From positions 239,012-303,011 of the forward strand of contig JAVHLM010000002.1 in the NCBI GenBank assembly GCA_031082125.1: DNA of 64,000 nucleotides, in the 5' to 3' direction. This document shows positions 3,366 to 37,301 of this stretch, in pieces. The DNA is from Vulcanimicrobiota bacterium (GTDB lineage Bacteria; Vulcanimicrobiota; CADAWZ01; Ess09-12). A program made the position numbers and the translations under genes. How positions within the stretch are numbered: position 1 is the stretch's first letter; each line of letters begins with the position of its first letter. Below the pieces are notes generated by a model, which had not been told where the DNA came from, made no database searches, and saw only the letters and a program-made list of their open reading frames with translations.

Positions 3366-3461
3366 CCTGTCAGGCCCGCGCTCCCTCTTTTTCCGGTAGG
3401 GTAGGCCTGGTATAATGAAAGGAGCATTGATGGGAACTACGAGCGGAATATTCTCAAAGGC

Positions 3462-3857
3462 ATGAATTTTCTCAAAAAGCTTTTTCCCGGAAAGAGGCAG
3501 TCCGCCGCGGCCAGGGATTCAGGACTTTTCCCCGAGAGCACCGTCGTCTTAACCGTTGATGACCACGCTGTCATCAGTGCCAGGCCGGGAGGGCTCACGG
3601 AGCGGGTCACATGGGACGAGCTTTCCCGTGTGGAGATCATGACTACCGATGAAGGTCCCCTGGTGGCCGATGTATTCTGGGTGCTCCATGGGAAGGACCG
3701 GGGATGCGTGATACCCCAGGGTGCCACCAACGAGCATGACCTCATCGAGAAGCTTGTCAGGCTTCCAGGGTTCAACCACAACGAAATGATAGAAGCCATG
3801 GCCTCGACGGAGAACCGCACCTTTCTGGTCTGGGAGAAAGGGGGAGAATCCCGCTAG
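3462..3857 (+). CDS. Hypothetical protein (131 aa)
   Basis: Track ORF with ATG start; no recognisable family. Preceded by an 11-codon uORF whose stop overlaps this ATG (ATGA). Confidence 0.4.
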   Translation: MNFLKKLFPGKRQSAAARDSGLFPESTVVLTVDDHAVISARPGGLTERVTWDELSRVEIMTTDEGPLVADVFWVLHGKDRGCVIPQGATNEHDLIEKLVRLPGFNHNEMIEAMASTENRTFLVWEKGGESR

Positions 3858-4636
3858 AGCTTTCTCTTCACCCTGTCGCCGGTCCTGGCGGTGCCGCTCC
3901 CTGCGATTTTTTCCGCCGTGCTCTCGTTTTTGTCCACAAAGGTCACTTTAAGATCACAGGAGGCCGCTCCCTTCTCCCTGGGGATCAGGGTAAAGATCAT
4001 GCCCTCCAGGACTCCCTTGGTCTTTCCTATGTCCAGCGTGACTCTCCCCTTGGTCACATCCAGCACGTAGCCTTCAAGCGCGGCCTGATGCGGGGCTTTC
4101 TTGAGTTTCATTTTCTCAATTTTCACTGAAAGTTCCCGGGCGAGGGCCACAAAGCCCTTGCCCAGCGATGATTCCTTGAATGTCTCCGTTTTATAGGGGA
4201 GGGCCGTGCCCTCCTTGAGGTCCTCTGCAGGCACCTCGATGGTCTTCTCGGCTTCAACACCTCCGGCGATGAAGCCCCCTTTTTTGTCGGTGAAGGTGAG
4301 GGCGCAGGCCACCGTGATATTGGTATTGTCGCTCTTGGCGAACTTCGTGACGGTGCCCCTCACAAGGTAAACTGGAGTACCGGCTTTCGCTCCCTCGGGG
4401 GTACTGCCCAGCACGAAGCGCTTTGATTTTTTTATCTGCCCTTCCATAAGCCTGGAAAAGAGTGTCGCGGGGTCAAGGGCGTCGCCCCACCAGGGCGAAA
4501 ATCCCGTGGCCACCTTAAAGGAGTCTATCTCCACGGGAGTTTTCACTGGCGCCGCTTTGGGTGCTGCGTCACCGGAGGGCGCCGCCAGGGTGAACAGGGC
4601 TGCACACAGCAGTGCTGCAGAGATGATTTTTCTCAT
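3854..4636 (-). CDS. Hypothetical secreted protein (260 aa) with signal peptide
   Basis: N-terminal signal peptide MRKIISAALLCAALFTLAAP; Lys-rich beta-rich body; converges with previous gene with overlapping stops. Confidence 0.5.
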   Translation of the reverse strand: MRKIISAALLCAALFTLAAPSGDAAPKAAPVKTPVEIDSFKVATGFSPWWGDALDPATLFSRLMEGQIKKSKRFVLGSTPEGAKAGTPVYLVRGTVTKFAKSDNTNITVACALTFTDKKGGFIAGGVEAEKTIEVPAEDLKEGTALPYKTETFKESSLGKGFVALARELSVKIEKMKLKKAPHQAALEGYVLDVTKGRVTLDIGKTKGVLEGMIFTLIPREKGAASCDLKVTFVDKNESTAEKIAGSGTARTGDRVKRKL

Positions 4637-4897
4637 GGGATGGTTATTCTCCTTTCCTTAATTCATCCCTTACCCTTCGGCGCGGTTGTACCCCATGCCT
4701 TCAATGGTAAAACGGCATGGATGCCACTGGGAAAAGGGGCCGTCCCAGAAAAAATTGGAGGTCCCCCTGCGGGGGGTATCCCGGTAAATTCTCCGCTTCA
4801 GCTGCTTTCCCTCTGTGGTAAAACCAGGGGCTTGCAGGAGAAGAGGAAAAGGCATGGAAAAGTCACGGGATAAATTTTCTCGAGGAGGAAGTCGGCG

Positions 4898-5926
4898 ATG
4901 AAAAGATCTTTCTGTCAGGCCCTCGCGGCAATCCTTATCCTGGCAGCCCTTGCAGCGGGGAACAGCGTTTATGCGGCGCCGGTGAAGTTTCAGGACAAGA
5001 TGCTCTGGATACAGCTGGGGAACCAGATCAAGGACATTGATGACGCCATGCTGGAAAAGATAGCCGAGTGCGGCTTCTCCAAGGTGATTCTGCTGCACTC
5101 TTCAATCAATGAGCAGGGCTACTTCCCTGTCCTCCGATCCCTCACGAAGCGCTGCCATGCAAAGAAGATCAAGGTGAGCATGGGGACTCTTGTCTTCAAG
5201 GACACCTACCAGAAGCCTTACTGGCTCCGCAACCCGGGCCTGAGGAAATGCGACAGGGACGGGAAATACAGCGACACCAAGTATTATCACTACCAGATAT
5301 GCCCTAACAACCCTGTAAACCATGAGTACGCCGCGGGCCTCCTTCTCAGGGAGGCACAGGAGGCCGGCGTGGACGAAATCCATATCGACTATGAGATAGA
5401 GCCCTGCTTCTGCCCGTACTGTGTCGCCGATTTCCAGGAGAAGCACAAGAAGGACCCGCGCGTGCTCTCTGACAAGGACAGGGACTGGCTCGTGTGGCGC
5501 TCCCGCAAGACCCGCGATTTCTTCGAGGTGCTTGCCCGCAAGTGCTACGGGAGCTTCCCCACCTTCCTCATCTCTGCCACGGCGCCCGTCATCGGCCTTC
5601 CCGGCGGCTTCACGGCCTATGGCACAGACCTGCGCTATGAGGATCTCACCCAGTATGTGGACGAGTTCCAGCCCATGATCTACCTTTCGGTGAAGACAGA
5701 CCCCTCCGTTGCCGGCGACAAGTTCGCTGCCATCCAGCGCCGTGTGCTGGACAAGTATGTGGTCCCCGGCATCATTATCAACGAGGAGGGAACGATGCAG
5801 ATAAAGACCAGGGACCGTCTGATGGCGGAGCTTGAAGGGCTCGCCCGCAAGGGGGCAAAAGGCATTGCTGTCTTTGAGGTTCGTTACATCAACGATGAGC
5901 TTAAGGGACTCCTGCGCGACCTTTAG
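4898..5926 (+). CDS. Secreted hypothetical protein, possible glycoside-hydrolase-like TIM barrel
   Basis: Signal peptide MKRSFCQALAAILILAALAAGNSVYA; alternating beta/alpha pattern (VILLHSS, EIHIDYEIE); CFCPYC motif. Family assignment tentative. Confidence 0.45.
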   Translation: MKRSFCQALAAILILAALAAGNSVYAAPVKFQDKMLWIQLGNQIKDIDDAMLEKIAECGFSKVILLHSSINEQGYFPVLRSLTKRCHAKKIKVSMGTLVFKDTYQKPYWLRNPGLRKCDRDGKYSDTKYYHYQICPNNPVNHEYAAGLLLREAQEAGVDEIHIDYEIEPCFCPYCVADFQEKHKKDPRVLSDKDRDWLVWRSRKTRDFFEVLARKCYGSFPTFLISATAPVIGLPGGFTAYGTDLRYEDLTQYVDEFQPMIYLSVKTDPSVAGDKFAAIQRRVLDKYVVPGIIINEEGTMQIKTRDRLMAELEGLARKGAKGIAVFEVRYINDELKGLLRDL

Positions 5927-6735
5927 CCCTCGCGGTCCAGCGCTTCCCTGATGGAGCGCACAAAGTCTCTCACGGTGCTGCAAAGCTTTTTTCTGTCGCC
6001 ACGATGTTCCTCGATGATGGTGGCGAGAGCGCTTCCCACTATGACGGCATCAGCACCCGTTCCCCTGAAGAGAGCCGCATGGTCCGGCTTTGAGATGCCG
6101 AAGCCCACGGATACAGGTGTATCCGTCACTTCCCGCACTTCGTTGATTTTCCCGATGGTCCGTGCTGAGACGGAAGACCGCTCGCCCGTGACGCCCAGCA
6201 CCGCCACGAGGTAGATATAGCCTGTCGTAAGGCCTGCAATGTCCCTGATGCGCTCCCGCGGTGTCGTGAGGCCCACCATGAACACTGATTCAAGATCATT
6301 TGCCGCAAGCCCCTCCATAAGAGGGGCAGCGCTCTCTGGAGGGAGATCGGCCGCCAGCACTGCATTGACGCCGCAGGCGGCGGCATTACGGCAGAAAGCC
6401 TTGATGCCATAAGCATGGATGAGGTTGTAGTAAAGAAGGAGCCCCAGGGGCACCGGTGAGAGCTTTCTCACCCTTTCTATCAGAGCAAGGCATTTTCCCG
6501 GCGTCATGCCGGCGGCGAGAGACCTTGCCGCCGAGCGCTGGAGCACGGGGCCGTCGGCGATAGGGTCGGAAAAGGGAAAGCCCAGCTCGAGGCCTTCGGC
6601 GCCTCCCTCAAGAGCTGCCGAGATAAGGGCAAGGGATGTCTTCTCGTCGGGATCTCCCAGGGTGAAGTAAGGGATAAAGGCCTTTCCGGCCCCCGGGGTC
6701 TCTCTCTTTTCCAGCAGATACCGGCGGAATCCCAT
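5923..6735 (-). CDS. trpA: Tryptophan synthase alpha subunit
   Basis: 270 aa; FIPYFTLGDPD, GVTG and GFGIS motifs of TrpA; last gene of trp operon. Confidence 0.9.
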   Translation of the reverse strand: MGFRRYLLEKRETPGAGKAFIPYFTLGDPDEKTSLALISAALEGGAEGLELGFPFSDPIADGPVLQRSAARSLAAGMTPGKCLALIERVRKLSPVPLGLLLYYNLIHAYGIKAFCRNAAACGVNAVLAADLPPESAAPLMEGLAANDLESVFMVGLTTPRERIRDIAGLTTGYIYLVAVLGVTGERSSVSARTIGKINEVREVTDTPVSVGFGISKPDHAALFRGTGADAVIVGSALATIIEEHRGDRKKLCSTVRDFVRSIREALDREG

Positions 6736-6738
6736 AGG

Positions 6739-7902
6739 TCACCTCTTCATGGCAAAATAGCTATCCAGGTCCTTGTCGCCTCTCCCCGAGAGGTTGATGA
6801 GCATAAGGGAGCCCCTGTGCTCCCCTGCCGCGGCAAAGGCCGAAGCGAGGGCATGGGCAGGCTCAAGGGCAGGGATAATCCCCTCAAGGAGCGAGAGCGT
6901 CTCGAAGGCCTCGAGGGCCTCTTCGTCGGTCACCGTCACGTAGCGGACGCGCCCCCTGTCGCGAAGTGCGCTGTGCTCGGGTCCCACGCCGGGGTAATCA
7001 AGGCCTGCCGCCACCGAATGGGTCTCCTCAATCTGCCCGTGGGGGTCCTGGAGGAGATAGCTCAGGCTCCCGTGGAAGACCCCGGGCCGCCCGAAGGTGA
7101 GGGGGGCGCCATGATGGACACCGTCGCCTTTTCCGCCGGGCTCGACTCCCACAAGCTTCACCTCACCGTCACCGAGGAAGGCGCTGAAAATTCCCATGGC
7201 GTTTGACCCGCCGCCTACGCAGGCATAGACATAGTCGGGGAGCCGCCCTTCCTTCCGGACTATCTGGCGGCGCGCCTCGCGGCCGATGACGCTCTGGAAC
7301 TCCCTCACCATGAGGGGGAAGGGATGGGGGCCGCAGACGGTGCCGAAGAGGTAATAGGTGGTTTCCACATTGGCAATCCAGTCGCGGAGGGCTTCATTGA
7401 TGGCGTCCTTGAGGGTGGCTGTCCCCGAGGTGACGGGAATGACCTCGGCTCCCAGCAGTTTCATGCGCTTCACGTTGGGGCTCTGGCGCTCTATATCGGT
7501 GGCGCCCATGTAAATGTGAGTCTTGATGCCGAAAAGGGCCCCTGCCATGGCGGTGGCGACCCCGTGTTGCCCGGCGCCTGTCTCAGCGATGAGGCGCCCC
7601 TTGCCCATCTTTTTCGCAAGCAGCCCCTGGCCCAGGCAGTTGTTGGTCTTGTGGGCGCCGCCGTGGAGGAGATCCTCCCGCTTGAGGTAGATAGTGGCGC
7701 CCAGCCGCTCAGAGACATTGGCGGCAAGCGTGCAGGGTGTGGGCCTCCCGGCGTAGTCCCTCAGCAGGGCGGCAAGCTCACTCCTGAAGGCTTTCTGCCG
7801 CGCTATGTCCAGAAAGGCGCTCTCGACCTCCTCGAGGGCAGGGATGAGGATCTCGGGCACATAGAACCCGCCGTACCGTCCGAATTTTCCAGTTTTGCGC
7901 AT
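6739..7902 (-). CDS. trpB: Tryptophan synthase beta subunit
   Basis: 387 aa; PLP-lysine motif HGGAHKTNN; GAGQHG; start ATG at 7900-7902 on reverse strand. Confidence 0.95.
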
Positions 7903-7914
7903 GGGTGCTCCTTT

Positions 7915-8697
7915 TCAGCGCGGCGAAGACCGTGCAAGGATGGCCGTGAACTCCCTCAGGCACGCCTCGGGATCTCCTCCCGCCATGAAGGCCGAGCCTA
8001 TGAGAAATGCCCCGGCATAGGGCATGAGCTCCTCAAGGTGATCTCCTGAGGTGATTCCCGATTCGCTTACGATGAGGATTCCTTCCGGGATGAGGGGGGC
8101 GATCCTTTTTGTCGTCTCCCTGGTAATGGTCATATCTTTGAGGTTCCTGTTGTTGATGCCTACCATGGGGGGGCTGAGGGGAAGGACATGCTCCAGGGAC
8201 ACTTCCTCGTGGACTTCCACGAGAGCCTCCATCCCGAGCTCTCTCACAAGGGAGTAAAGGCCGGCAAGCTCGCCGGCTTCGAGGGCTTCGGCAATGAGAA
8301 GGACGGCATCGGCACCTGAAGCCCTGGCTTCGTGAACCTGGTAAGCGTCAATGATGAAATCCTTCCTGAGGAGGGGCAGCTCCACGAGGCGGCGCGCCGT
8401 GAGGAGATCGTCGAGACTCCCCGAGAAGTGGTCCTCTTCAGTGAGGACGCTCATTGCATCGGCATAACGCCCGTAAAGGGCCGCCTGTGTGGCAAGGTCA
8501 GGGGCGTTATGAAAGGTGCCTCTTGACGGCGATGCTTTTTTGTACTCGGCGATGAGGCCATGGCCTTTCCTGCTGAGAGCTCCTGCGAAATCCCTGGGAG
8601 GAGGTGCCTCGCGGTCCCTCAGTTCCCCGAGGGGCACCCTCTTCTTCGCCTCGGCAAGACACTCCCGCTTTCTCTCCACGATGCGATCAAGGATCAC
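7915..8697 (-). CDS. trpC: Indole-3-glycerol-phosphate synthase
   Basis: 260 aa; monofunctional length, no fused TrpF domain; IAEYKKASPS and INNRNL motifs. Confidence 0.9.
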   Translation of the reverse strand: MILDRIVERKRECLAEAKKRVPLGELRDREAPPPRDFAGALSRKGHGLIAEYKKASPSRGTFHNAPDLATQAALYGRYADAMSVLTEEDHFSGSLDDLLTARRLVELPLLRKDFIIDAYQVHEARASGADAVLLIAEALEAGELAGLYSLVRELGMEALVEVHEEVSLEHVLPLSPPMVGINNRNLKDMTITRETTKRIAPLIPEGILIVSESGITSGDHLEELMPYAGAFLIGSAFMAGGDPEACLREFTAILARSSPR

Positions 8698-9740
8698 GGC
8701 TTTCTCACTCCCTCCTCCCCCCGGGAAAGCGAGGCCTGTATCGTGAAGGCCTTGATCTCCTCAAGCTTTTGAAGGGCTTTCCCCTTTTCTATGAGGTTTC
8801 TTGCGGCATTCACGCCTTCCTTGATGGATGGCGAGTGGCCCGCCACGTAGAGGGCCGCCCCGGCATTGAGGAGGGCCATGTCCCTTTTGGGGTCCTTTTT
8901 CACCTTTCGCGGCGTCAGCACATCCCTTATAATCCCGGCGTTCTCGGCGGCGTCGCCGCCCAGGAGGCTCTCGTGCCTGGCCCTGGTGAGGTCGCATTCC
9001 TCGGGGTAGAGGATCTTTGCCGTGATGCGCCCGTCGCGGACCTCAATGTACCGTGAAGGCCCCGTGACAGTAAATTCATCGGTGCCGTCGCCGTGGACGA
9101 CAAGGGCCCGCCTTGTGCCCAGCCTTTCCAGGACATGGGCCACTGTCTCAAGGTGATCGGGCGAGAAGAGGCCCACGACCTGGTGCGTGGCCCCCGCGGG
9201 GTTCGTGAGGGGGCCCAGGAGGTTGAAGACGGTCCTTATTCCCAGGTCCTTGCGCACGGGGGCAATGGCCAGCATGGCCTGGTGGTGCTCCCTGGCGAAG
9301 AGAAAGCAGAAGCCTGTCTTGAGAAGGCATTCCACGAGCTTTTCCGCGGGAAGGGAGAGGGAAAAGCCCAGGGCCTCAAGGACATCGGCGCTCCCGCTCT
9401 TTGATGAGGCGGCCCTGTTCCCGTGCTTGGCCACTCTTATTCCCGCCGAGGCGGCAATGAGAGCTACCGTTGTCGAGATATTGTAGGTGCCGACACCGTC
9501 GCCACCAGTGCCGCAGGTGTCCAGCAGGGGCTCTTTCGTGGGAAAGTTGACGCGGTGGCAGAAGGTGTGCATGACGCGGGCGAAAGCAGTGATCTCATCG
9601 ACGGTTTCCCCTTTTATCCTGAGAGCGGTGAGAAGTGCACCGGCCATCACGGGGCTGTATTCGTTCCGCATCATCTTTTCCATGAGGTGTGCGGCCTCAT
9701 CGGCAGTGAGATTCTCTTTTCTTGTGAGCTTGTTCAGCAT
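8694..9740 (-). CDS. trpD: Anthranilate phosphoribosyltransferase
   Basis: 348 aa; CGTGGDGVGTYNISTTVALIAASAG motif; overlaps trpC start by 4 nt. Confidence 0.9.
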   Translation of the reverse strand: MLNKLTRKENLTADEAAHLMEKMMRNEYSPVMAGALLTALRIKGETVDEITAFARVMHTFCHRVNFPTKEPLLDTCGTGGDGVGTYNISTTVALIAASAGIRVAKHGNRAASSKSGSADVLEALGFSLSLPAEKLVECLLKTGFCFLFAREHHQAMLAIAPVRKDLGIRTVFNLLGPLTNPAGATHQVVGLFSPDHLETVAHVLERLGTRRALVVHGDGTDEFTVTGPSRYIEVRDGRITAKILYPEECDLTRARHESLLGGDAAENAGIIRDVLTPRKVKKDPKRDMALLNAGAALYVAGHSPSIKEGVNAARNLIEKGKALQKLEEIKAFTIQASLSRGEEGVRKP

Positions 9741-9744
9741 GGCC

Positions 9745-10323
9745 TCATCCCTCCCTGCCGGAAAGCACGTTGTCGATTATGGCACCCCCTGCGGCAGTGA
9801 GAATGCTCTCAGGGTGAAACTGCACTCCCGTGACCGGCAGGCTCTGGTGTCGCACTGCCATTACAATGTCTTTCTTGCGCGCCGCCACTTCGAGGACCAG
9901 AGGGATCTCGAGGCCCGCGAGGGAATGGTAGCGCCCTACGGGGAGAGGTGAGGGAAGCCCTGAGAAGATCCCTTTCCCGTCGTGAGTGATGAGGGACGTT
10001 TTCCCATGGACGATCTCCCCGGCATGGCCCACTTTCCCTCCGAAGGCCTCGATCATGCACTGGAGGCCCAGGCAGACGCCGAACATGGGGACTTTCCCGG
10101 CGTAAGTCTTGATAAGGTCTATACTGCACCCGGCGTCACGGGGTGCCGAGGGCCCGGGGGAAAAGACCAGCAGATCGGGCGAAAATTCCCTGAAGAGGGC
10201 TTCATACTCATCCATGGCAAGGTTATTCCTGTATATTTTCACGAGGCAGCGGCGTTTTTCAAACTCGTCCACCAGGTTGTACGTGAAGCTGTCGAAATTG
10301 TCGATGAAGAGTATCTTTTTCAT
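9745..10323 (-). CDS. trpG: Anthranilate synthase component II (glutamine amidotransferase)
   Basis: 192 aa; class-I GATase motifs GVCLGLQ and catalytic H-x-E region (VQFHPES). Confidence 0.9.
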   Translation of the reverse strand: MKKILFIDNFDSFTYNLVDEFEKRRCLVKIYRNNLAMDEYEALFREFSPDLLVFSPGPSAPRDAGCSIDLIKTYAGKVPMFGVCLGLQCMIEAFGGKVGHAGEIVHGKTSLITHDGKGIFSGLPSPLPVGRYHSLAGLEIPLVLEVAARKKDIVMAVRHQSLPVTGVQFHPESILTAAGGAIIDNVLSGREG

Positions 10324-11924
10324 CTCTCTGCAGCTCTTTTCAATGCCGTGAGCGGGGCGGCAAGCTTTTTTTCCGTCTCCTCGTATTCGCTCTCCGCGAT
10401 GGAATCGTAGACAATGCCTGCCCCTGCCCGCAGGTGCGCCTTTCCCTCCAGAATCCTCATCGAGCGGATGATGATGCAGGAGTCCATCTCGCCGTTCCGG
10501 CTGAAGTAGCCGCAGGCGCCGCCGTAATAGCCGCGCTTGAATTTTTCACAGCGTCTCAGGAGCTCCATTGCCTTGAGCTTGGGTGCCCCGGTGAGGGTCC
10601 CGGCATTCATCACCGAGAGGTAGGCATGGAAGGCGTCAATATCTTCCTTGAGCTCACCCTTCACCGTGGTCACAAGGTGCTGCACATGGGAATATTTCTC
10701 CGTGCAGTACGGCGACTCGACGACTCTCGTACCGGGCTTTGCCACGCGGGCGATGTCGTTGCGCGCCAGGTCGATGAGCATGGAGTGCTCGGCAAGCTCC
10801 TTGAAGTCAGTCTTGAGGGAGACCTCGTACCGGGAGTCAAGGTCGGCATCAGGGACTCCTGCAGCGATCCCCCTGGGCCTTGTACCCGCGATGGGCCTCG
10901 TCTCTACGATTGGCTTTTCTGTGCCGGTGACCCTGAGGAGCATCTCGGGCGATGCCCCCAGCAGCACACCGCGCCCGTCGTTCATGTAAAACATGTAAGG
11001 TGAAGGGTTGAGGGAACGGAGCTCTCTGTAAATTGCCCAGGGGTCTGCTATGCCTTCTGCAGTGACGGTCCTGGAAGGGACGGCCTGGAACACATCGCCC
11101 TCGACGATATGGCTTTTCATTGTCTCTACGAGGCTCATGTATTCCTCCCTGCTGAACTCCTGGGAGGTGGTGATGGCTCCCCCGGTGCTCCCCGCCTCAG
11201 GAGGTGCGGTGCCGTTGAGAATGAGGCGCTCGATACGTTCTATCACTTCTGTGGCGTGGAGGAACGCGCCGCCTGCCTCTTCGTCGGTGATGACCATGGC
11301 GTTGGAGACTATGGCAAGCTCATGCTTCGCATGGTCTGCCACGAGCAACGTGGTGCCATAATAGAAGGTGAAATCATCCTCATTAAGGGGATCGCTCAAA
11401 GGCGGGGGAAGGCTCTCGAAGGTGTCTATGAAGTCGTAGGTGAGGGCGCCGAAGAGGCCGCAGAAAAGGTGGCCGGGCCAGTAAGCCGGCGTGAGCTTCC
11501 CGAGGACAAGGCGGAGCACGTGAAAGGGTGTGATGGCTCTCAGCCTCGCCTGCTCGTCAATATGGCGGGGAACAGGGGGAAGAATTCCCTCTGCAAGCGA
11601 AGGCTCATTCCTTATCACGCTCCCCAGCAGGGCAAGATCGGGCATCAAGGCATCTATGAATCTTATACCAAAGCGGTCAAGCGCTTCCAGGCGGTAGCCC
11701 GTTCCTCTCCCGCAGATGCGCAGGCACGGCTCGATGACCATGATGCTCATTTTCCCATAGAAGGGCACGATGTCGGCCGATTCCAGGAACATGGCATGGG
11801 GTGCATGGCCTCCTCCCGAGACCAGCGAGAAGATCTCCGAGGCATCACGGGTGAGGGCGATGCTCTTCACGACGGGGATGAGGCGGAGAGAGCCTCCGGG
11901 CTTCACTGTTTCTCTCATTGGCAC
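10320..11924 (-). CDS. trpE: Anthranilate synthase component I
   Basis: 534 aa; chorismate-binding motifs (GGYxGxxGYF-like GYYGGACGYF); GTG start at 11924 overlapping aroF 3' end. Confidence 0.9.
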   Translation of the reverse strand: MPMRETVKPGGSLRLIPVVKSIALTRDASEIFSLVSGGGHAPHAMFLESADIVPFYGKMSIMVIEPCLRICGRGTGYRLEALDRFGIRFIDALMPDLALLGSVIRNEPSLAEGILPPVPRHIDEQARLRAITPFHVLRLVLGKLTPAYWPGHLFCGLFGALTYDFIDTFESLPPPLSDPLNEDDFTFYYGTTLLVADHAKHELAIVSNAMVITDEEAGGAFLHATEVIERIERLILNGTAPPEAGSTGGAITTSQEFSREEYMSLVETMKSHIVEGDVFQAVPSRTVTAEGIADPWAIYRELRSLNPSPYMFYMNDGRGVLLGASPEMLLRVTGTEKPIVETRPIAGTRPRGIAAGVPDADLDSRYEVSLKTDFKELAEHSMLIDLARNDIARVAKPGTRVVESPYCTEKYSHVQHLVTTVKGELKEDIDAFHAYLSVMNAGTLTGAPKLKAMELLRRCEKFKRGYYGGACGYFSRNGEMDSCIIIRSMRILEGKAHLRAGAGIVYDSIAESEYEETEKKLAAPLTALKRAAER

Positions 11925-12931
11925 TCCTTTGCTGAGAGGTGCATGAGCTTCTCGATTTCGCCCACGAGCTTCGAGAAGCGCTCCGTCGAGATGGTCTGCT
12001 TGCCGTCGCTTTTTGCCCTGTCGGGGTCGGTGTGGACCTCGATAAGGATGCCGTCGGCGCCTACGATGGCCGCCGCCTTCGCCATGATATAGGCCAACTC
12101 CCTGTCGCCGGTACCATGGGATGGATCCACCACGACGGGAAGGTGGGTCTCGCGTTTGAGATAAGGGACAGCGGCGAGATCCAGGGTGTTGCGCATGGCC
12201 GTCTCAAAGGTCCTGATGCCCCGCTCGCAGAGGATTATCCTGGGATTTCCCGCAAGGGCAATATACTCGGCGCACATGATGAGCTCCTCGAGCCGCGCCG
12301 AGAGCCCCCTCTTGAGGAGCACGGGCTTGTCAATCTTCCCTGCCTCAAGGAGGAGGTCGTAGTTCTGCATGTTCCGGGCCCCGATCTGCAGGATGTCATA
12401 ATAGTCGTAATAGCGCTCCACATCCTTTGTGTGGATTATCTCGGTGCATATGGGGAGGCCTGTGACAGCCCTTGCCTCCTTGAGGTATTCCAGGCCTTCC
12501 TCCTTGAGGCCCTGGAAGGAATAGGGCGAGGTGCGGGGCTTGAAAGCGCCTCCCCTGAGCACGTGGCCCCCCTTGTCCTTCACTTGTCTTGCGATCTCGA
12601 TGATCTGCTCGCGGCTCTCGACAGCGCAGGGGCCGGCGATGAAGGTGAAGGTCCCTCCCCCGATGGCGTGGGCGCCCAGGGTGATAACGGTGCTCTCGTC
12701 GTGGAACTTCCTGTTCACAAGCTTGTGGGGCTCCAGGATGGGAATGACGCGCTCCACGAAGGGGAGGGCTTCGAGCTGGAGGGCCTGGAGCTTCCGCTCG
12801 TCGCCGAGGGCGCCTATCACAATCTTCTCCGAGCCGGGGAGGTAAAGGGGCTCAAGCCCCAGATTCTCTATCCCCTTGAGGATGCTGTCGGATTCCTGTT
12901 TTGTCACGTTCTTGCGAAGCACAATAATCAT
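11915..12931 (-). CDS. aroF: 3-deoxy-7-phosphoheptulonate (DAHP) synthase, type I-beta with N-terminal ferredoxin-like regulatory domain
   Basis: 338 aa from ATG at 12931 (RBS GGAGAG 9 nt upstream). Near-collinear with Thermotoga-type DAHPS: MIIVLRK ... GPCAVES ... RGGAFKPRTSPYSFQGL ... KPVLLKRG ... DPSHGTGDR. Track ORF extends to TTG 13039 across the promoter. Confidence 0.85.
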   Translation of the reverse strand: MIIVLRKNVTKQESDSILKGIENLGLEPLYLPGSEKIVIGALGDERKLQALQLEALPFVERVIPILEPHKLVNRKFHDESTVITLGAHAIGGGTFTFIAGPCAVESREQIIEIARQVKDKGGHVLRGGAFKPRTSPYSFQGLKEEGLEYLKEARAVTGLPICTEIIHTKDVERYYDYYDILQIGARNMQNYDLLLEAGKIDKPVLLKRGLSARLEELIMCAEYIALAGNPRIILCERGIRTFETAMRNTLDLAAVPYLKRETHLPVVVDPSHGTGDRELAYIMAKAAAIVGADGILIEVHTDPDRAKSDGKQTISTERFSKLVGEIEKLMHLSAKECQ

Positions 12932-27976: not shown

Positions 27977-28453
27977 GTGATCATTATGGGTGGGTTTATA
28001 AAGGCCTTGCAGCTTTTTTTCCAGGTCCTCAGGGACAGGGAGCTGGCCGAGGGAATTGAGAGACTGAAAAGCGGGCAGCTCTGCGACCCTGCACGGGTCC
28101 TTTACCTTTTCCAGCGCGAAGCGCGCTTTGTGGATTTCATCAAGGAAGACCTGGAGGGTATCGGCGATGCCCAGGTGGGCGCCGTGGCGCGCACCTTACA
28201 CCAGGGGTGCCGGAAGATCCTCAAGGAGTATCTTGTCATAGAGCCTGTGAGGAGCGAAGAGGAGGGCTCGCCTCTCACCGTGGAGAAAGGCTTTGATCCC
28301 TCGGCGATCCGCCTGGTGGGGAATGTGAGCGGTGAGCCCCCTTTCAAGGGAACGCTGGCCCACCATGGGTGGAAGCTTGCCTCTTCCAAGGTTCCGGCCG
28401 CACCCTCCGGCCAGGATTCGTCAATAATCCAGCCTGCCGAGGTAGAGCTCTAG
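27977..28453 (+). CDS. Small cytoplasmic protein, DUF2760-like (158 aa)
   Basis: Track ORF with strong RBS; helical N-terminal half; family assignment from recollection of DUF2760 proteins neighbouring Hsp70 paralogs, not from a search. Confidence 0.5.
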   Translation: MIIMGGFIKALQLFFQVLRDRELAEGIERLKSGQLCDPARVLYLFQREARFVDFIKEDLEGIGDAQVGAVARTLHQGCRKILKEYLVIEPVRSEEEGSPLTVEKGFDPSAIRLVGNVSGEPPFKGTLAHHGWKLASSKVPAAPSGQDSSIIQPAEVEL

Positions 28454-30346: not shown

Positions 30347-33115
30347 ATGGAGGCTTCATCACGCTATTCCATAGGGATTGACCTGGGCACCACCAACTCA
30401 TCGGTGGCCTATATCGACAGGAACTCGCGGGCGAAGAGGCGCCCCATCCAGTTCCTGGAGATCCCTCAGGTCGTGGCCGAGGGCGAGGTGGCCTCGAGGC
30501 TGCTCCTCCCCTCCTTTCTTTACTTTCCCCGCGAGTTTGAAGTCCCCCGGGAGCAGCTTGGCCTCCCCTGGGACAGCGAGCGTGATCATGTCATCGGGGA
30601 GTTCGCCCGCGCCCGTTCAGCACTAGTGGCCGGCCGCGTGGTCTCATCGGCGAAGTCGTGGCTTTGCCATGCCAAAGTGGACCGCAGGGCCCCCCTGCTC
30701 CCCTGGGGCTCACCGGAGGGAGAGCGCACCATCTCGCCTCTTGATGCCACGCGATGCTTTCTCTGTCACCTGAAGGAGGCCTGGAATCACGACATGGCAT
30801 CTCATGATGACGGAGCCCGCATGGAGCAGCAGGAGCTGGTCATCACCGTCCCCGCCTCTTTTGACGAAGCGGCGCGGGAGCTTACAGTGGAGGCAGCACG
30901 GACCTGCGGACTCTCAAGAATCATCCTGCTGGAAGAGCCTCAGGCAGCCTTTTATTCCTGGCTTTATTCCCATGAAGCCTCATGGAGGAGGAGCCTCAAG
31001 GGGCTCTCAGTCATCCTGGTCTGTGACGTGGGAGGGGGCACAAGCGATTTCACCCTGATCAGGGTGGAGCATGGCACCGACGACCTCTCCCTCAGGAGAG
31101 TCGCCGTAGGTGAGCATCTTCTTCTGGGCGGCGACAACATGGATCTTGCCCTGGCCCGCCATATGGAGAAGAAAGTCTTTCATGGCGAAAGGAAGCTTGA
31201 CAGCGCAGGGTGGTCCATGCTCTGCCAGCAATGCAGGAGCGCCAAGGAAAAGGCCTTCATGGAGAACCCGCCGCCCGAGTTTTCCCTCACCATCACAGGG
31301 CGGGGAAGCCGGCTCGTGGGAGGGGCCTCTTCTGCACTCATCACAAGGGATGAGGTGGTGAGCCTTCTGATGGAGGGCTTTCTTCCCGATGTCCTCTACG
31401 GTGAGCCTGTAATCTCTTCAAGGGGAGCGGGCCTCAAGGAGTGGGGCCTTCCCTACGCCAATGACCCTGCCATCACAAGGCACCTCTCGGAGTTCCTTCG
31501 GCACCATCTCCCCGGCAGTGAATTTCCCGACGCGGTGCTCTTCAACGGGGGAGCCCTCTCTCCCGTTGCGCTCCAGGAGCGGATCGTCAATATTCTGGAG
31601 AAATGGCGAGGCCCCGGTAATCCCCTCAGGATCCTTCCCAACCGGTTTCCCGAGCATGCCGTGTCAAGGGGCGCCGCCTATTTCGGGCTGGTGCGCACAG
31701 GCGAAGGGGTGCGCATCGGCGGCGGCACGCCGCGCTCGTACTATGTCGGCGTCGAGGTGGCCGACAGAGGCCGCGGGCTTCCTCCCCCCGGCACACAGGT
31801 ACTCTGCCTTGTCCCGAAGGATCTCCTCACGGAGGAGGTACAGGAGATCAGGGGGCATGAGTTCTCCCTGCTGCTGGGCCGCCCCGTGAGCTTTGCCCTG
31901 TTTTCCTCAACGCGCAGGGATGAAGATCTCCCGGGAGAGCTGCATCTCATCGATCCCGACGAGCTTGAAAAGCTCCCTCCCCTCTACACCGTCCTGTCCC
32001 ATGAAGGCACTGAAGGCGAGGTCCCTGTCCATCTCAGGGCCTGGATCACCGAAATCGGCACCCTTGAGCTCTGGTGCGTCTCCGAGGCTGAGCAGTGGAA
32101 GCTTCAATTTGCCCTCGCGGCGGGCCCTGCCGCCGCCGCAGAGAAAGGTGAAGAGCCGCCATCCCTGGCGCCATCCATAGCAAGGGATGCCAAGGAACTT
32201 GTGGCAGCGGCATTTCAGAAGAAAGGATCGCAGGAGGTGAAGCCCCGCGGCCTTCTCTCGGCTCTTGAAGAGATGACGCACGGGAAGCGCGAGCTCTGGC
32301 CCATGGCCTTTTCCAGGGAAATCGGGGATGCCGCCCTCCAGGTGGCGGGAAGAAGGAGGAGCACTCCCACCGCCGAGGCGAGCTGGTTCAATGTTGCAGG
32401 CTTTGCGCTTCGCCCGGGATTCGGCTACCCTCTTGACGAGTGGAGAATGGAAAAGGTGTGGTCTCTTTTTCCCCACTGGCTCCAGCACCACCGCGATCCT
32501 CAGTGCCGCCTTGAATGGTGGATTTTCTGGCGCCGCTGTGCAGGCGGTCTTGATGAGAAAGCTCAGGAGCAGATCTTTGACAGGGTGAGCCCTTACCTTT
32601 TCCCGGGGAGAAAGCACATCAGGACATTTCCCGGCCCTGCTCCCGTGCGCATTGAATTTCTCGAAATGATGAGGACGGCCTCATGTATTGAAAAAATTTC
32701 AGGACATGGCCGCTCCATGCTGGGCGACTATGTCCAGGCCCACCTGAAAAGCCATCCCGAAGCCGCCGACTGGTACTGGATGATTGCGCGGATAGGCTCC
32801 CGGATCCCCTTTGCTTCAGGTGCTGACAAGGTCCTTGCGCCTGAGACCGTATCCCCCTGGGTGGAGACCCTTGTCTCCCTCCCATGGCAGGGCTCCCAGG
32901 GAGCCTTTGCCCTTTCAAGGATTGCCCGCCTCACGGGCGACAGGGCCCGCGATATCGATGAGCCGCTGAGGATGGCGGCGGTAAAGAGGCTTCGGGCCTC
33001 GGGATGCGATGAAGAACTAATTGCGCCGCTCCTGGAGGTCGTGGAAGACAGGACTGCTGACCAGAGTATGGTCTTCGGCGAGTCACTCCCGCCGGGCCTT
33101 ACGGTAAAATCCTGA
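30347..33115 (+). CDS. Hsp70-family ATPase paralog with ~300-aa Trp-rich C-terminal extension
   Basis: 922 aa; SIGIDLGTTNSSVA, VPASFD, CDVGGGTSDFTL, SYYVGVE; same architecture as upstream paralog plus unique tail. Confidence 0.8.
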   Translation: MEASSRYSIGIDLGTTNSSVAYIDRNSRAKRRPIQFLEIPQVVAEGEVASRLLLPSFLYFPREFEVPREQLGLPWDSERDHVIGEFARARSALVAGRVVSSAKSWLCHAKVDRRAPLLPWGSPEGERTISPLDATRCFLCHLKEAWNHDMASHDDGARMEQQELVITVPASFDEAARELTVEAARTCGLSRIILLEEPQAAFYSWLYSHEASWRRSLKGLSVILVCDVGGGTSDFTLIRVEHGTDDLSLRRVAVGEHLLLGGDNMDLALARHMEKKVFHGERKLDSAGWSMLCQQCRSAKEKAFMENPPPEFSLTITGRGSRLVGGASSALITRDEVVSLLMEGFLPDVLYGEPVISSRGAGLKEWGLPYANDPAITRHLSEFLRHHLPGSEFPDAVLFNGGALSPVALQERIVNILEKWRGPGNPLRILPNRFPEHAVSRGAAYFGLVRTGEGVRIGGGTPRSYYVGVEVADRGRGLPPPGTQVLCLVPKDLLTEEVQEIRGHEFSLLLGRPVSFALFSSTRRDEDLPGELHLIDPDELEKLPPLYTVLSHEGTEGEVPVHLRAWITEIGTLELWCVSEAEQWKLQFALAAGPAAAAEKGEEPPSLAPSIARDAKELVAAAFQKKGSQEVKPRGLLSALEEMTHGKRELWPMAFSREIGDAALQVAGRRRSTPTAEASWFNVAGFALRPGFGYPLDEWRMEKVWSLFPHWLQHHRDPQCRLEWWIFWRRCAGGLDEKAQEQIFDRVSPYLFPGRKHIRTFPGPAPVRIEFLEMMRTASCIEKISGHGRSMLGDYVQAHLKSHPEAADWYWMIARIGSRIPFASGADKVLAPETVSPWVETLVSLPWQGSQGAFALSRIARLTGDRARDIDEPLRMAAVKRLRASGCDEELIAPLLEVVEDRTADQSMVFGESLPPGLTVKS

Positions 33116-33121
33116 AAATGC

Positions 33122-33150
33122 TTGATTTTATTGTCAGTATGGTTTACAAT
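33122..33150 (+). promoter_or_regulatory. Predicted promoter (TTGATT-17-TACAAT) upstream of repeat-protein gene
   Basis: TTGATTttattgtcagtatggttTACAAT followed by AAGGGGGG RBS and ATG 33179. Confidence 0.45.
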
Positions 33151-33178
33151 AGAAGGGTAAAAAAAGGGGGGAAAAATT

Positions 33179-33640
33179 ATGGATAATCTCGGCAGCGTTT
33201 ACGGACCTTCATTTTCCAAGGGGCCTCTGATGCTGGTAGGGTGGAATGCAAGGGAGGACAAGCTTTCGGTGCAGACAGGCACCACCTTTATTGACTATCC
33301 TGGAACCGACAAGGATGTCATGATCCGTTGTGAGCAGGATTCCATCATCATAGACAGGAAAAGCGACGTGCCCGCGGTCATCATAAAGAGAAACGGCGAC
33401 GATATAGAGGTCCACAAGGAAGGACAAGATGCCGATGTGAGGATCAAGCGGAGCGGCAATGAGATTTACGTGGACAGGAAAGGGATGGATGAAGACGTGA
33501 CCATATCGCGCCAGGGCACCCTCGTGATCTTTGACCGCATGGGGCAGGATCGCGATGTGAAGATATCATCAACCTCCGATCACGGCGTCAATTTCCCTGT
33601 GTACATCACATGGGAAGGCGAAGTCATTGAGCAGGTCTGA
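33179..33640 (+). CDS. Hypothetical protein with ~9 tandem 10-12-aa repeats (153 aa)
   Basis: Periodic pattern hydrophobic-x-hydrophobic-x-(R/K)-x-G-x-D-x-D, e.g. IEVHKEGQDAD / VRIKRSGNE / IYVDRKGMDED / VIFDRMGQDRD. Confidence 0.5.
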   Translation: MDNLGSVYGPSFSKGPLMLVGWNAREDKLSVQTGTTFIDYPGTDKDVMIRCEQDSIIIDRKSDVPAVIIKRNGDDIEVHKEGQDADVRIKRSGNEIYVDRKGMDEDVTISRQGTLVIFDRMGQDRDVKISSTSDHGVNFPVYITWEGEVIEQV

Positions 33641-33663
33641 TGACAGCTTGTGACCAGGACCCA

Positions 33664-33695
33664 GGGATCTCTTAAGAGAGATCTTTTTCTTTTTC
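33664..33695 (+). terminator. Possible intrinsic terminator (AT-rich 7-bp stem, T-tract)
   Basis: gatctctTAAGagagatc followed by tttttcttttt, 25 nt after the stop of the repeat-protein gene; stem is weak. Confidence 0.4.
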
Positions 33696-33716
33696 AGGTC
33701 AGGCCCTTCCCCCTTA

Positions 33717-33745
33717 TTGACAGCGGCCGAAAAGGGGTGTAAAAT
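33717..33745 (+). promoter_or_regulatory. Predicted promoter of kinase gene (TTGACA-17-TAAAAT)
   Basis: TTGACAgcggccgaaaaggggtgTAAAAT ~30 nt upstream of ATG 33777. Confidence 0.55.
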
Positions 33746-33776: not shown

Positions 33777-36700
33777 ATGCTTGGAACGGTATTTATAGGA
33801 AGATACAAGGTAATAGAAGAACTCGGCCGCGGCGGCATGGGTATTGTCTACAGGGGAGAGGATCCTGCCCTGGAGAGGCCTGTCGCCATCAAGGTACTTC
33901 CCCCCAAGAAGCTTTCACAGAAAAAAGCCATCAAGCGTTTTCTCCGTGAGGCCCGAGTCTCGGCGCGCCTTGATCACCCCAGGATTGTCAAGATCTATGA
34001 CATCGGCGAGGAAGAGGGCATCTACCACATTGTCATGGAGTACGTGTCGGGGAAGGGGCTGCGCGATCTCATCGAGGAGCGCGAGAGTGTCGGGCAGATC
34101 GACATAGACGACATGACGCGCCTTTTCAAGCAGATATGCCAGGCCATCGAGTATGCCCACAGCCTGAAGATTGTGCACCGTGACATCAAGCCGGAAAACA
34201 TCATGGTGACCACCGAGGGGAATGCCAAGGTCATGGACTTCGGCCTTGCCGTCCTCGAGGACCGCCATTCAATCACCGAGATGGGCGCCGTAATGGGGAC
34301 GATAGCCTATTTCTCCCCTGAGCAGGCCCGCGGTGAGCCTGCCGATCACCGTGCCGATATCTACTCGCTCGGCGTGGTATTCTACGAGATGCTCACTAAC
34401 GCGCTTCCCTTTGAGGCTACCAACCCCTCGGACATGATCCAGAAGCATCTCCAGGCGCTTCCCCTCTCGCCTGTCAAGCGGAACCCCTCGGTGCCGCCCC
34501 TCCTGGAGAGCCTTATCCTGAAGTGCCTCCGCAAGCTCCCCGACGACCGTTATGGTGACGTCTCCGAGCTGACAGCCGAGCTTTCGCGCTACATCCGCTC
34601 AAGGGAGAAGCAGAAGGAAGAGCCTCGCCCTGAAGCGCTGGCGCCGGAGCCTGTCCAGGGGCCGCCTCCCAAGGTTGAATGGCCCTTTTCTCCCCCTCAG
34701 AGTGACTCTGTGCCCCACGTCCATTACCAGCCGCCACGGGAAATGGAGCACCTGGCCACTCCCCAGGGAGAGGAGGAAGAGGACGAGGGGCCTGTTCCCG
34801 AGCTTCCTCATCATCTGATCCCGCCCGAGGAGGCCGATGGCAGGGCCTTTCACCCCGCGGACATACCGGCCCAAACACCTCCACCCGCCGAAGCGCCGCC
34901 CGGGCAGAAATTCCAGCCGGTTGCAGGAACAACTCCCCTTGCGAGTCCTCAATGGATGATGGAGGCCAAGGAGGAAGCCGAGCAGGATCGCTACCAGGCC
35001 TTCATGGACAAGCTCAGGCGCGATGCCGCTGTCCGCTCCCATGCCACTGAAATGGAGGTGGCACCCACGCCTGCCGCCGTGGTATGCGCCAAGTGCGGCC
35101 TTGAGAACACGGGAGACAAGAAGTACTGTGTGGACTGCGGGAGCCTTCTCGCCCCCAGCTACTTTGTCGCTGCCCGCGAGGCGATCCATCACAATGACCA
35201 GGGGGTCATCTACTTTGAGGAGGGCCAGCTTGAGAGGGCTCTCTTCGAGTTCCAGCAGGCTCTTGCCCGCGATCCCGACATGGCCGAGGCGCGCTTCAAC
35301 ATTGCAAGGGTCTATCTGGAAAGGGGGGAGTTTGAAAAGGCTTTCGAGGCTTTCAGGGAATTCTCCCATCTTCAGCCAGACAACCCCCAGCCCTATCTTT
35401 ACCTGGCCGATATTTACCGGAAGCAGGATCGGAAGGATCTTGCCATCAACGAGTACATTAAGGCCATCAAGCTCAATCCCTCAGACGCGGCGGTGCGCTG
35501 CCAGCTCGCTTTCCTCTATTCCCAGCAGGGTGCCCTTCCCCAGGCCATCCAGGAATACAGAGTGGCCCAGAACATTGACCCCGAGAATATTGAGGCTCAC
35601 CGCCAGCTCGGCTTCATCTATGCGGGCCTCGAGCAGGTTGATGACGCCATAAGGGAGTTCGAGTGGGTCGTGAAGCTCGACCCCGGCAACCAGCAGGCTT
35701 ACACGTGGCTGGGAAACCTTTATACGAAGCGCCGTCGCTATGGCAATGCCGAGAAGGTCTATACCATGGCCCTCTCCCTCAACCCTGCCGATGCCGGCAT
35801 TCATGCCCAGCTTGGCGGCCTCTACGAGATGCAGAACAGGGAGGAGCTCGCCTTCCAGTCGCTCTTCCGGGCTGTCTCCATCGACCAGGGAAATGCCGAG
35901 GCCAGGACCAGGCTTGCCGATCTCTACCTGAAGCACCACCAGCCCCAGATGGCCGTCAAGGAGCTTGAGGCCGTCGTCACCCACCACCCCAACGATCTGA
36001 AGATCCACCAGCAGCTCGGTGAGCTCTATCTTCATCTCAACAAGTTTGATGAGGCCCTCGATCACTTTGAGAAAACAGTGAACCTCTCGCCGGGGACTGC
36101 CGACCTTCACAACAAGCTGGGAAGACTCTATCTGAAGAAGGACTTCAACCAGCTCAGCATCCTGGAATACCAGAAGGCCGTGAGTCTCGATCCCTGCAAC
36201 CCCGAGTATCATGAGGATCTTGGAATGGCCTACTACTGCCAGAACAGGAATGATATGGCCATCCAGGAGCTCAGGAAGGCCGTCACCCTTGACAGTCGGA
36301 ACGTCGATTACTACAAGGCGCTTGGCGTGATGCTCGAAGAGGAGGGCCGTCTCGACGAGGCCATAAAGATGCTGAAAAAGGCCCAGGAGATGGACAGGAA
36401 GGATCCCATGATCCATGCCCTCATGGGGAAGGTCTATTTCTCCCAGGGCCTGATGAACATGGCCATCTTCGAGTACCAGAAGGCCCTTGAGCTCCAGCCC
36501 ACCAATTACCTCTTCCATATCTACATGGCCAAGGCCTATTCCCGCCAGGAGAAGGTTGACGCCGCAATCGAGGCATTCAGGAAAGCGATTGAGCTCATGC
36601 CGGGCGCCCGAGGCGCGGAATACAACATCGTGATGGGGAAAGCCTATGTCGATCTTGGCAAGGCTTACCTGGATAAGGGCGATCTCAACCTTGCAAAGGA

Positions 36701-37301
36701 AGTGCTCCTTACGGCATACAAGCTCACCCCGCAGAATGCCAGGGTCTCCCATTACCTGGGGATCATATTCCTGGGCCTCAAGGACTTCAAGAACTCGCTG
36801 CACTATATCTCGGAGGCTCTCAACCTTGAGCCCAACAATGCCGATATCATGGCGGACCTGGGGAACCTTTACCTCGCCCGGGGCGACATTGAGCTCGCTA
36901 TAAGGGCTTTCAGGAGATCCATTGATCTCTCGCCTGACAGGTTTGATGTCTACGAGCTGCTCACCATGGTCCTCACCAGGGCCGGAAAGTTCTCAGATGC
37001 TGTCGAGGTGCTCCGCTCTGCGAAGGAACTCAATCACTCGCAGGCCGATCACTATCACTGGCTTATCGGAGGCCTTTTCCTGAAGCTCAAGGACCCGGAG
37101 AGCGCACGGGAGGAGTTCACGAGAGCCATCGCGATAAACAACAGGAACTGGAATTACTACTTTGATCTCGGCGGGGCATACCGCCTTCTCAACCGCAACG
37201 AGGAGGCATTCAGGGAGCTTGAGACGGCCTTCAGCCTCTGCAAGGACAAGAAATCCTCGGAGCTCATCATGGCAGAGCTTAAAAAGATAAGGGTGCGGTG
37301 A
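33777..37301 (+). CDS. Serine/threonine protein kinase with zinc-ribbon and >15 C-terminal TPR repeats
   Basis: 1174 aa; Hanks kinase motifs GRGGMGIVY, AIK, HRDIKPEN, DFG; Pro-rich linker; CAKCG ... CVDCG zinc ribbon; long array of 34-aa TPR units. Confidence 0.85.
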   Translation: MLGTVFIGRYKVIEELGRGGMGIVYRGEDPALERPVAIKVLPPKKLSQKKAIKRFLREARVSARLDHPRIVKIYDIGEEEGIYHIVMEYVSGKGLRDLIEERESVGQIDIDDMTRLFKQICQAIEYAHSLKIVHRDIKPENIMVTTEGNAKVMDFGLAVLEDRHSITEMGAVMGTIAYFSPEQARGEPADHRADIYSLGVVFYEMLTNALPFEATNPSDMIQKHLQALPLSPVKRNPSVPPLLESLILKCLRKLPDDRYGDVSELTAELSRYIRSREKQKEEPRPEALAPEPVQGPPPKVEWPFSPPQSDSVPHVHYQPPREMEHLATPQGEEEEDEGPVPELPHHLIPPEEADGRAFHPADIPAQTPPPAEAPPGQKFQPVAGTTPLASPQWMMEAKEEAEQDRYQAFMDKLRRDAAVRSHATEMEVAPTPAAVVCAKCGLENTGDKKYCVDCGSLLAPSYFVAAREAIHHNDQGVIYFEEGQLERALFEFQQALARDPDMAEARFNIARVYLERGEFEKAFEAFREFSHLQPDNPQPYLYLADIYRKQDRKDLAINEYIKAIKLNPSDAAVRCQLAFLYSQQGALPQAIQEYRVAQNIDPENIEAHRQLGFIYAGLEQVDDAIREFEWVVKLDPGNQQAYTWLGNLYTKRRRYGNAEKVYTMALSLNPADAGIHAQLGGLYEMQNREELAFQSLFRAVSIDQGNAEARTRLADLYLKHHQPQMAVKELEAVVTHHPNDLKIHQQLGELYLHLNKFDEALDHFEKTVNLSPGTADLHNKLGRLYLKKDFNQLSILEYQKAVSLDPCNPEYHEDLGMAYYCQNRNDMAIQELRKAVTLDSRNVDYYKALGVMLEEEGRLDEAIKMLKKAQEMDRKDPMIHALMGKVYFSQGLMNMAIFEYQKALELQPTNYLFHIYMAKAYSRQEKVDAAIEAFRKAIELMPGARGAEYNIVMGKAYVDLGKAYLDKGDLNLAKEVLLTAYKLTPQNARVSHYLGIIFLGLKDFKNSLHYISEALNLEPNNADIMADLGNLYLARGDIELAIRAFRRSIDLSPDRFDVYELLTMVLTRAGKFSDAVEVLRSAKELNHSQADHYHWLIGGLFLKLKDPESAREEFTRAIAINNRNWNYYFDLGGAYRLLNRNEEAFRELETAFSLCKDKKSSELIMAELKKIRVR

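Follow-up and report, generated by a model that had tools for sequence, protein, structure and literature searches.

What is a short gene for a repetitive protein doing immediately behind two genes for Hsp70-like ATPases, and does its position there reflect a shared task or merely a shared history? The question is raised by a 64,000-nucleotide (nt) stretch of the genome of a Vulcanimicrobiota bacterium (assembly GCA_031082125.1, contig JAVHLM010000002.1, positions 239,012-303,011, forward strand), referred to below as the window, in which a gene for a protein of 153 amino acids (aa), here called the small protein, starts 63 nt beyond the end of the last of three genes encoding a DUF2760 protein, an Hsp70-like ATPase and a second, 922-aa Hsp70-like ATPase with a C-terminal DUF3731 (the triad; Table 1). 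A first-pass annotation had described the small gene as a stand-alone unit, its product as some nine tandem repeats of 10-12 residues folded into a beta-solenoid or beta-roll, and the protein as a potential client or partner of the Hsp70 pair. Conserved adjacency to the Hsp70-like triad within one clade is well supported, as is, on the strength of a predicted model, an antiparallel all-beta hairpin-repeat architecture. The role that we favour, tentatively, is that of a lineage-specific accessory of the triad, be it an adaptor, a regulator or a dedicated substrate, which would act through conserved terminal caps and an acidic rim.

Is the gene real in the first place? That it is a genuine protein-coding gene is well supported. 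The open reading frame (ORF) has the position and length given in the first-pass annotation, and its translation is identical to protein RDV48_03555 of a metagenome-assembled genome at NCBI, from Candidatus Eremiobacteraeota. No significant match was found in Pfam, NCBIfam, PHROGs or PADLOC, a result that a spurious, non-coding ORF would also produce; the remote homology search that the annotation had called for, by contrast, did find relatives. A word-indexed search of 5.8 billion clusters returned the small protein itself and one relative at 56% identity, and an exhaustive HMMER search of 1.84 billion representatives yielded 32 proteins, among them three full-length orthologues (P0003-P0005; E <= 1e-37) and the more divergent P0009 (8.7e-17). 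Additional orthologues came from a second profile search (P0035), from two Joint Genome Institute (JGI) metagenome contigs (L007 and L008) and from locus L013. The full-length orthologues, ten in total, are 32-56% identical to the window protein and share its start, stop, caps and repeat register; with a conserved Shine-Dalgarno run and promoter (see below) and a confident structure prediction added to this, the probability that the ORF is spurious becomes negligible. Plasmid and phage collections gave no match to the small protein in tblastn searches, species-representative genomes gave no usable loci via either the small protein or the DUF3731 protein, and a second copy of the gene was not found within the window.

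The first line of evidence for a bond with the triad is gene order. In the window and at L002, L003, L007, L008 and L013/L014 the Hsp70/DUF3731 gene is followed on its own strand, after 59-207 nt, by the small gene or its orthologue, so that the link to the Hsp70 pair noticed in the first-pass annotation proves to be conserved. These loci represent four deeply diverged lineages, with small proteins that are 37-56% identical to one another. Wherever the Hsp70/DUF3731 protein is at least 53% identical to that of the window, a small gene occupies the slot after it at every informative triad locus; this includes the P0045 contig, on which an unannotated 153-aa gene, a candidate orthologue, follows the triad. 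What lies beyond the small gene changes from locus to locus: a Ser/Thr kinase with tetratricopeptide (TPR) repeats and then PriA in the window, a staphylococcal-type nuclease and a dihydroorotate dehydrogenase at L008 and L013, a dihydroorotate dehydrogenase and a methyltransferase at L007, and different genes again on the P0045 contig.

The second line of evidence concerns the spacer between the triad and the small gene. In all six verified triad-linked loci the block CTTG[AC]TTTT-N13-ATTACAAT has been kept while the surrounding spacer has diverged. In an alignment of five of these spacers the sole conserved blocks are CTTGA/CTTTT, ATTACAAT 17 nt downstream of it and the ribosome-binding site GGGG(G), the last being invariant; the 207-nt spacer of L013 has a matching arrangement (TTGCTT-17-TACAAT). 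Since neutral DNA is saturated at this degree of protein divergence, the promoter of the small gene must be under selection, which bears out the earlier description of a stand-alone gene. The conserved promoter block (window 33117-33150, and the spacers of L002, L003, L007, L008 and L013) extends well beyond the canonical hexamers; a regulator site or an UP-like element may account for the additional bases that are conserved.

Does the small gene then form a transcription unit of its own? The promoter-like site and the hairpin with its T-tract were both located by pattern scans where the first-pass annotation had placed them. The hairpin 3' of the gene (-16 kcal/mol), however, is not more stable than shuffled versions of its 60 nt (z = -0.55), and as a terminator it is therefore evidence by shape only; a comparable hairpin also stands 3' of the L007 orthologue, and none was found after the L008 or L013 orthologues. 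In the gap that begins at the stop of the Hsp70-like gene (33115) a pattern scan detected no terminator-like site ahead of the small gene, so that read-through from the Hsp70-like gene could still contribute transcripts. The claim of a separate unit thus holds as far as the gene's own promoter is concerned and finds no support as regards separation from the Hsp70 gene upstream. An Rfam scan of the region gave nothing beyond a weak match to the SAM-III (SMK box) riboswitch at window 33099-33181, over the promoter and 5' untranslated region, which was taken as chance (17.7 bits against a gathering score of 45; E = 0.62).

Several observations weigh against a role of the small protein in the triad. 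At L011, whose triad is 49% identical, the slot holds a gene for an unrelated secreted protein of 246 aa, and at a triad locus from Xenobia (46% identity) it holds unrelated small genes. Two family members are not triad neighbours: P0002, encoded on a 1.9-kb contig behind a pseudopilin gene of type II secretion, has a promoter-like site of its own (TTGCAA-17-TAAAAT), and for P0005 no Hsp70 gene occurs within 10 kb. Homologues of the DUF3731 protein number at least 8000 and orthologues of the small protein about ten, which means that the latter cannot belong to the core of the system. Every linked locus belongs to one phylum-level group, and inherited gene order therefore contributes to the signal. 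The small gene's own conserved promoter argues for independent regulation, and in the Hsp70-like proteins a DnaK substrate-binding domain is not detectable, so classical client binding is not implied.

Could the small gene, then, be a neighbour by descent, a self-contained unit of one gene whose function has nothing to do with the triad (its product being, for example, a small binding or scaffold protein) and that was inserted after the triad in the ancestor of the clade and has not yet been separated from it? Its promoter and terminator-like hairpin, the unlinked copies P0002 and P0005, its absence after the triad in the two sister lineages examined and the narrow taxonomic origin of the linked loci would all be accounted for in this way. 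Such a history is harder to reconcile with an adjacency that has survived 37-56% protein identity while the downstream flank was replaced at least three times. Moreover, L011 keeps the kinase gene found downstream in the window and does so without the small gene, indicating that the small gene tracks the triad and not its downstream neighbour. Descent as the whole explanation is somewhat less likely than an accessory role, of which it is the main rival. P0005 and the P0045 contig, with its triad followed by a 153-aa gene, come from one and the same metagenome (JGI sample 3300075153); it is thus conceivable that P0005 represents a second paralogue, the genome having a triad-linked copy as well. 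On balance, the small gene was added within one clade and goes with the triad there, without belonging to its core. The L011 locus shows a further rearrangement (1079-12739), in that a DUF3887/dienelactone-hydrolase-like gene is inserted between its two Hsp70-like genes.

What sort of machine would such an accessory serve? Both triad ATPases resemble DnaK in the nucleotide-binding domain only; in the 610-aa protein the match is confined to residues ~10-301. Homologues of the DUF3731 protein come, among the named sources, from Vulcanimicrobiota, Planctomycetota, Desulfobacterales and Polyangiaceae, and no literature was found on a triad of DUF2760, Hsp70-like and Hsp70-like/DUF3731 genes. By virtue of being encoded beside Hsp70-family ATPases, the small protein recalls the Hsp70 co-factors, namely J-domain proteins and GrpE-type exchange factors. 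It has no Pfam or NCBIfam match to J-domain, GrpE or other co-chaperone families, however, and it is predicted to be all-beta, whereas J domains are helical. The PADLOC anti-phage models recognized neither the small protein nor the DUF2760 protein (0 families for each) and gave marginal PDC-M61B matches only for the Hsp70-like proteins.

If a function is to be sought in the protein itself, how is it built? The autocorrelation of residues 41-135 (BLOSUM62) is highest at lags 20 (z = 8.3) and 40 (z = 7.2); secondary peaks stand at lags 9 (z = 3.5) and 11 (z = 3.9) and also at 29 and 31. The periodicity seen in the first-pass annotation is therefore real, but the segments of 9-12 residues listed there are half-units of two alternating kinds, and the some nine repeats become five true units of 20 residues, each made of an 11-mer I-x-V-D-R-x-G-x-D-x-D and a 9-mer V-x-I-x-R-x-G-[DN]-x. 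In order, the units read TFIDYPGTDKD-VMIRCEQDS, IIIDRKSDVPA-VIIKRNGDD, IEVHKEGQDAD-VRIKRSGNE, IYVDRKGMDED-VTISRQGTL and VIFDRMGQDRD-VKISSTSDH. A consensus drawn from 35 orthologous units reads I-x-[IV]-D-R-x-G-x-[DE]-x-D-V-x-I-x-R-x-G-[DN]-x, and in it the alternating hydrophobic positions (1, 3, 12 and 14) and basic-Gly-acidic turns pointed out earlier recur. A hidden Markov model (HMM) built from residues 76-115 of the ten orthologues picks out two other segments of the small protein, residues 42-73 with 19.4 bits and residues 117-130 with 13.5 bits, the best score among 200 shuffles being 5.3 bits. The caps are better conserved than the repeats that they enclose, with KGPLM[LM]VGW...D27 at the N-terminus and FP[LV]YITW[DE]GEVIEQ at the C-terminus (YITWEGEVIEQV in the window protein). 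By inspection, residues 16-35 look like a degenerate repeat unit. The composition is acidic, with 19 Asp residues.

The fold predicted for these units differs from the one first proposed. AlphaFold2, given a 27-row alignment (A3) of seven orthologues and twenty repeat segments of distant members, returned a model with a mean predicted local distance difference test (pLDDT) of 89.3 and a predicted template modelling score (pTM) of 0.81; it supersedes an earlier run on a 2-sequence alignment that was too shallow (pLDDT 58.7). The model contains ten 6-residue strands between residues 34 and 130 (34-38, 47-51, 55-60, 67-72, 75-80, 87-92, 95-100, 107-112, 115-120 and 127-130), connected alternately by 2-residue turns (unit positions 18-19, G-[DN]) and 6-residue loops (positions 6-11). 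These are complemented by a strand in the N-terminal cap (18-20) and by two that form a hairpin at the C-terminus (141-143 and 149-151); from residue 11 onwards the N-terminal cap is predicted with pLDDT 80-96. Because consecutive strands joined by only 2 residues must form antiparallel hairpins, the architecture would be a meander sheet and not a parallel solenoid or roll. One face of that sheet would present the Ile/Val residues of positions 1, 3, 12 and 14 and the Arg residues of positions 5 and 16, and Asp at positions 4, 9 and 11 would crowd the long loops along one rim.

Why was a beta-solenoid or beta-roll an attractive idea? Like the repeats-in-toxin (RTX) beta-roll and the curli proteins CsgA and CsgB, the small protein repeats a short strand-turn unit in tandem, conserves Gly and Asp/Asn and alternates its hydrophobic residues, and in all of them two strands take up ~18-23 residues. 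A parallel beta-solenoid or RTX-like calcium-binding roll, with one 9-11-residue strand-plus-turn per half coil, could accommodate the recurring G-x-D-x-D-V-x-I, and the half-units of 9 and 11 residues come near the RTX nonapeptide GGxGxDxUx in length. Weak, sub-threshold matches point the same way: the AIDA-I adhesin at E = 0.014, CsgA/CsgB in some distant members and DUF3060 in 7 of the 32 family members. Yet the confident model shows antiparallel hairpins where RTX and solenoid proteins stack their strands in parallel, joined by arcs, and the period is 20 (11 + 9) and not the 18 of RTX. The expression GG.G.D for the GGxGxD motif has 0 matches in the small protein, and no beta-helix or RTX Pfam family matches (RTX at E <= 10). 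RTX and curli proteins are exported, whereas no signal peptide is evident on inspection of residues 1-30. With these results the solenoid or roll, including that of the first-pass annotation, becomes very improbable. Homology to the curli repeats S-x5-Q-x-G-x-x-N-x-A-x3-Q in particular was rejected, given an hhalign probability against CsgA of 1.9% and CsgA/CsgB NCBIfam matches confined to distant members and far below cutoff; the PDB profile searches (A1, A3), from which the AIDA-I match comes, were treated as noise, a sliding clamp (E = 0.83) being another of their matches.

The nearest described concept is the beta-flower, a shallow barrel of ~20-residue hairpins with a [DNEQ]xxG motif (PMC10584680). 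Members of both groups are small bacterial all-beta proteins composed of ~20-residue beta-hairpin units, with short strands, alternating short and long connections, [DNEQ]xxG near the hairpin loop and a hydrophobic inner face. D-x-x-G (DYPG, DRKG, DRMG) occurs in three of the five units, giving the combination of hairpin petals and motif that marks beta-flowers, and in the divergent orthologue P0009 a match extends over most of Pfam Bflower_3 (E = 2e-4; 21.7 bits, below the cutoff of 34). Could the sheet therefore close, in the manner of a beta-flower or a Tubby-like shallow barrel, into five to seven hairpins (10-13 strands) around a hydrophobic channel plugged or closed by the caps? A barrel of this kind would suggest a small ligand-, lipid- or membrane-binding module; as it concerns the fold, it is compatible both with an accessory role and with a neighbour kept by descent. 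On the other side, neither the window protein nor nine of the ten orthologues match the Bflower Pfam families (PF21784/5/6). Loops of ~4 and 9 residues in beta-flowers contrast with 2 and 6 here, the small protein has no counterpart of their C-terminal hydrophobic helix, and its wider family varies in unit number, up to ~12. Beta-flowers are closed barrels of 4-, 5- or 6-fold symmetry, and the small protein is known by predicted strand positions only. A closed barrel is, on this evidence, distinctly unlikely, and an antiparallel meander sheet remains our preferred description. Rhs/YD-repeat and teneurin shells and the uncharacterised Bacteroides protein BF3112 (PDB 3msw) are also among the closest known systems; Foldseek searches of the PDB and BFVD gave no match at E <= 1e-3, and literature on the ZZ4/3msw fold matches was uninformative.

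How widely does the repeat itself occur? The remaining representatives from the exhaustive search, of 170-460 residues, share with the small protein the 20-residue repeat only and combine it with other N- and C-terminal modules, some of them behind lipoprotein or transmembrane N-termini. About 25 more distant clusters carry the repeat as IxIDRxGxxNDVxIxRxGNx; a spacing of 20 is dominant in every family member, with 4 to ~12 units per protein. Two candidates, P0016 and P0026, were dropped from the family as spurious, their repeats being of low complexity and long period and their per-domain scores below 6 bits. DUF3060 (PF11259) resembles the family in being a short Gly/Asn/Asp-punctuated beta repeat of unknown function. 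Of the weak matches to it, however, that of P0012 alone passes the gathering score (25.3 versus 23.1 bits), and neither the window protein nor any orthologue matches; membership would in any case bring no functional information, as DUF3060 is itself uncharacterised. With family matches either below threshold or absent, the small protein can be filed under no curated family, and it is well supported that its repeat family is rare and uncurated. No Hsp70 genes occur at the two distant-member contexts examined (L009 and L010). The wider family (P0006-P0034) falls into several architectures; it includes a lipoprotein form (P0012) and a 350-aa form with ~12 units (P0006-P0010), and modules seen in it are a C-terminal 'W...G....DLVR...G' and an N-terminal 'FGVDLGNGLFYDLNGNL' that follows a transmembrane or signal segment.

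How might an accessory of this design work? The small protein would be a soluble, presumably cytoplasmic, acidic 17-kDa all-beta protein of five 20-residue units (I-x-V-D-R-x-G-x-D-x-D-V-x-I-x-R-x-G-N-x), each contributing two 6-residue strands. The short R-x-G-[DN] turn may serve as a tight hairpin into the next unit and the longer D-R-x-G-x-D-x-D loop as part of an acidic rim, with Ile/Val at the four hydrophobic positions running along one face of the antiparallel meander sheet and the conserved caps finishing it. In one clade of Vulcanimicrobiota (Eremiobacterota) its gene is the fixed fourth gene after the triad, equipped with a conserved sigma-70-type promoter of its own, through which the amount of the small protein could be adjusted separately from that of the triad proteins. 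Through the caps and the rim of acidic loops it would bind the ATPase module, whether as adaptor, regulator or dedicated substrate. A bolder proposal, that the 20-residue 'IDRxG...DV' hairpin repeat defines an undescribed family, possibly with a new all-beta architecture, and that its 153-aa member serves the triad machine as a dedicated fourth subunit, in the capacity of adaptor, regulator or obligate substrate, is unlikely to hold in full.

Why should it matter? The triad is a widespread, uncharacterised ATPase system that is worth study in its own right, and a fourth subunit, if true, would provide an experimental handle on what this machine acts upon. Being small and easy to express, a protein that stays with the triad in one clade would make a cheap bait for the targets that the triad binds or remodels. 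A near-idealised 20-residue hairpin module that is absent from Pfam, and for which no close solved structure was found, has some value for fold classification and repeat-protein design. Should the adjacency reflect inheritance only, one more lineage-specific hypothetical protein would be left. The novelty is modest: a repeat family not described before, found beside an ATPase system that is itself uncharacterised, and with a putative function only.

Table 1. Coordinates in the window of the small gene, its flanking signals, the segments of its product and the triad genes
Feature	Position	Strand	Evidence or details
Coding sequence of the small gene	33179..33640	+	ATG start, 153 aa, 17.2 kDa, isoelectric point 4.67; ORF listing
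Sigma-70-type promoter-like element TTGATT-17-TACAAT	33122..33150	+	Consensus scan
Shine-Dalgarno run GGGGGG	33166..33171	+	7 nt before ATG; read from sequence
N-terminal cap, residues 1-35	33179..33283	+	Conserved KGPLMLVGW...D27; G21, W22 and D27 invariant in 10 orthologues
Five canonical 20-residue beta-hairpin repeats (predicted), residues 36-135	33284..33583	+	Lag-20 z, internal HMM, unit consensus, model strands
C-terminal cap, residues 136-153 (FPVYITWEGEVIEQV)	33584..33637	+	Most conserved segment; P140, G147, E148 and E151 invariant in 10 orthologues
Terminator-like 10-bp hairpin and T-tract	33663..33696	+	Pattern scan; hairpin at 33663-33686, then TTCTTTTTC
DUF2760 protein, first triad gene	27977..28453	+	Pfam PF10816, E = 3.3e-47
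Hsp70-like ATPase, 610 aa	28490..30322	+	Pfam HSP70, E = 8e-16
Hsp70-like ATPase with C-terminal DUF3731, 922 aa	30347..33115	+	PF12531, E = 4e-73; HSP70, E = 1e-16

The gene that follows the small gene in the window (33777-37301) is preceded by a strong promoter-like site, TTGACA-17-TAAAAT at 33717-33745, which is stronger than that of the small gene, and encodes a Ser/Thr kinase of 1174 aa that carries a long array of TPRs. Its kinase domain matches many PD-T4-6 models of PADLOC, probably as a matter of generic kinase similarity.
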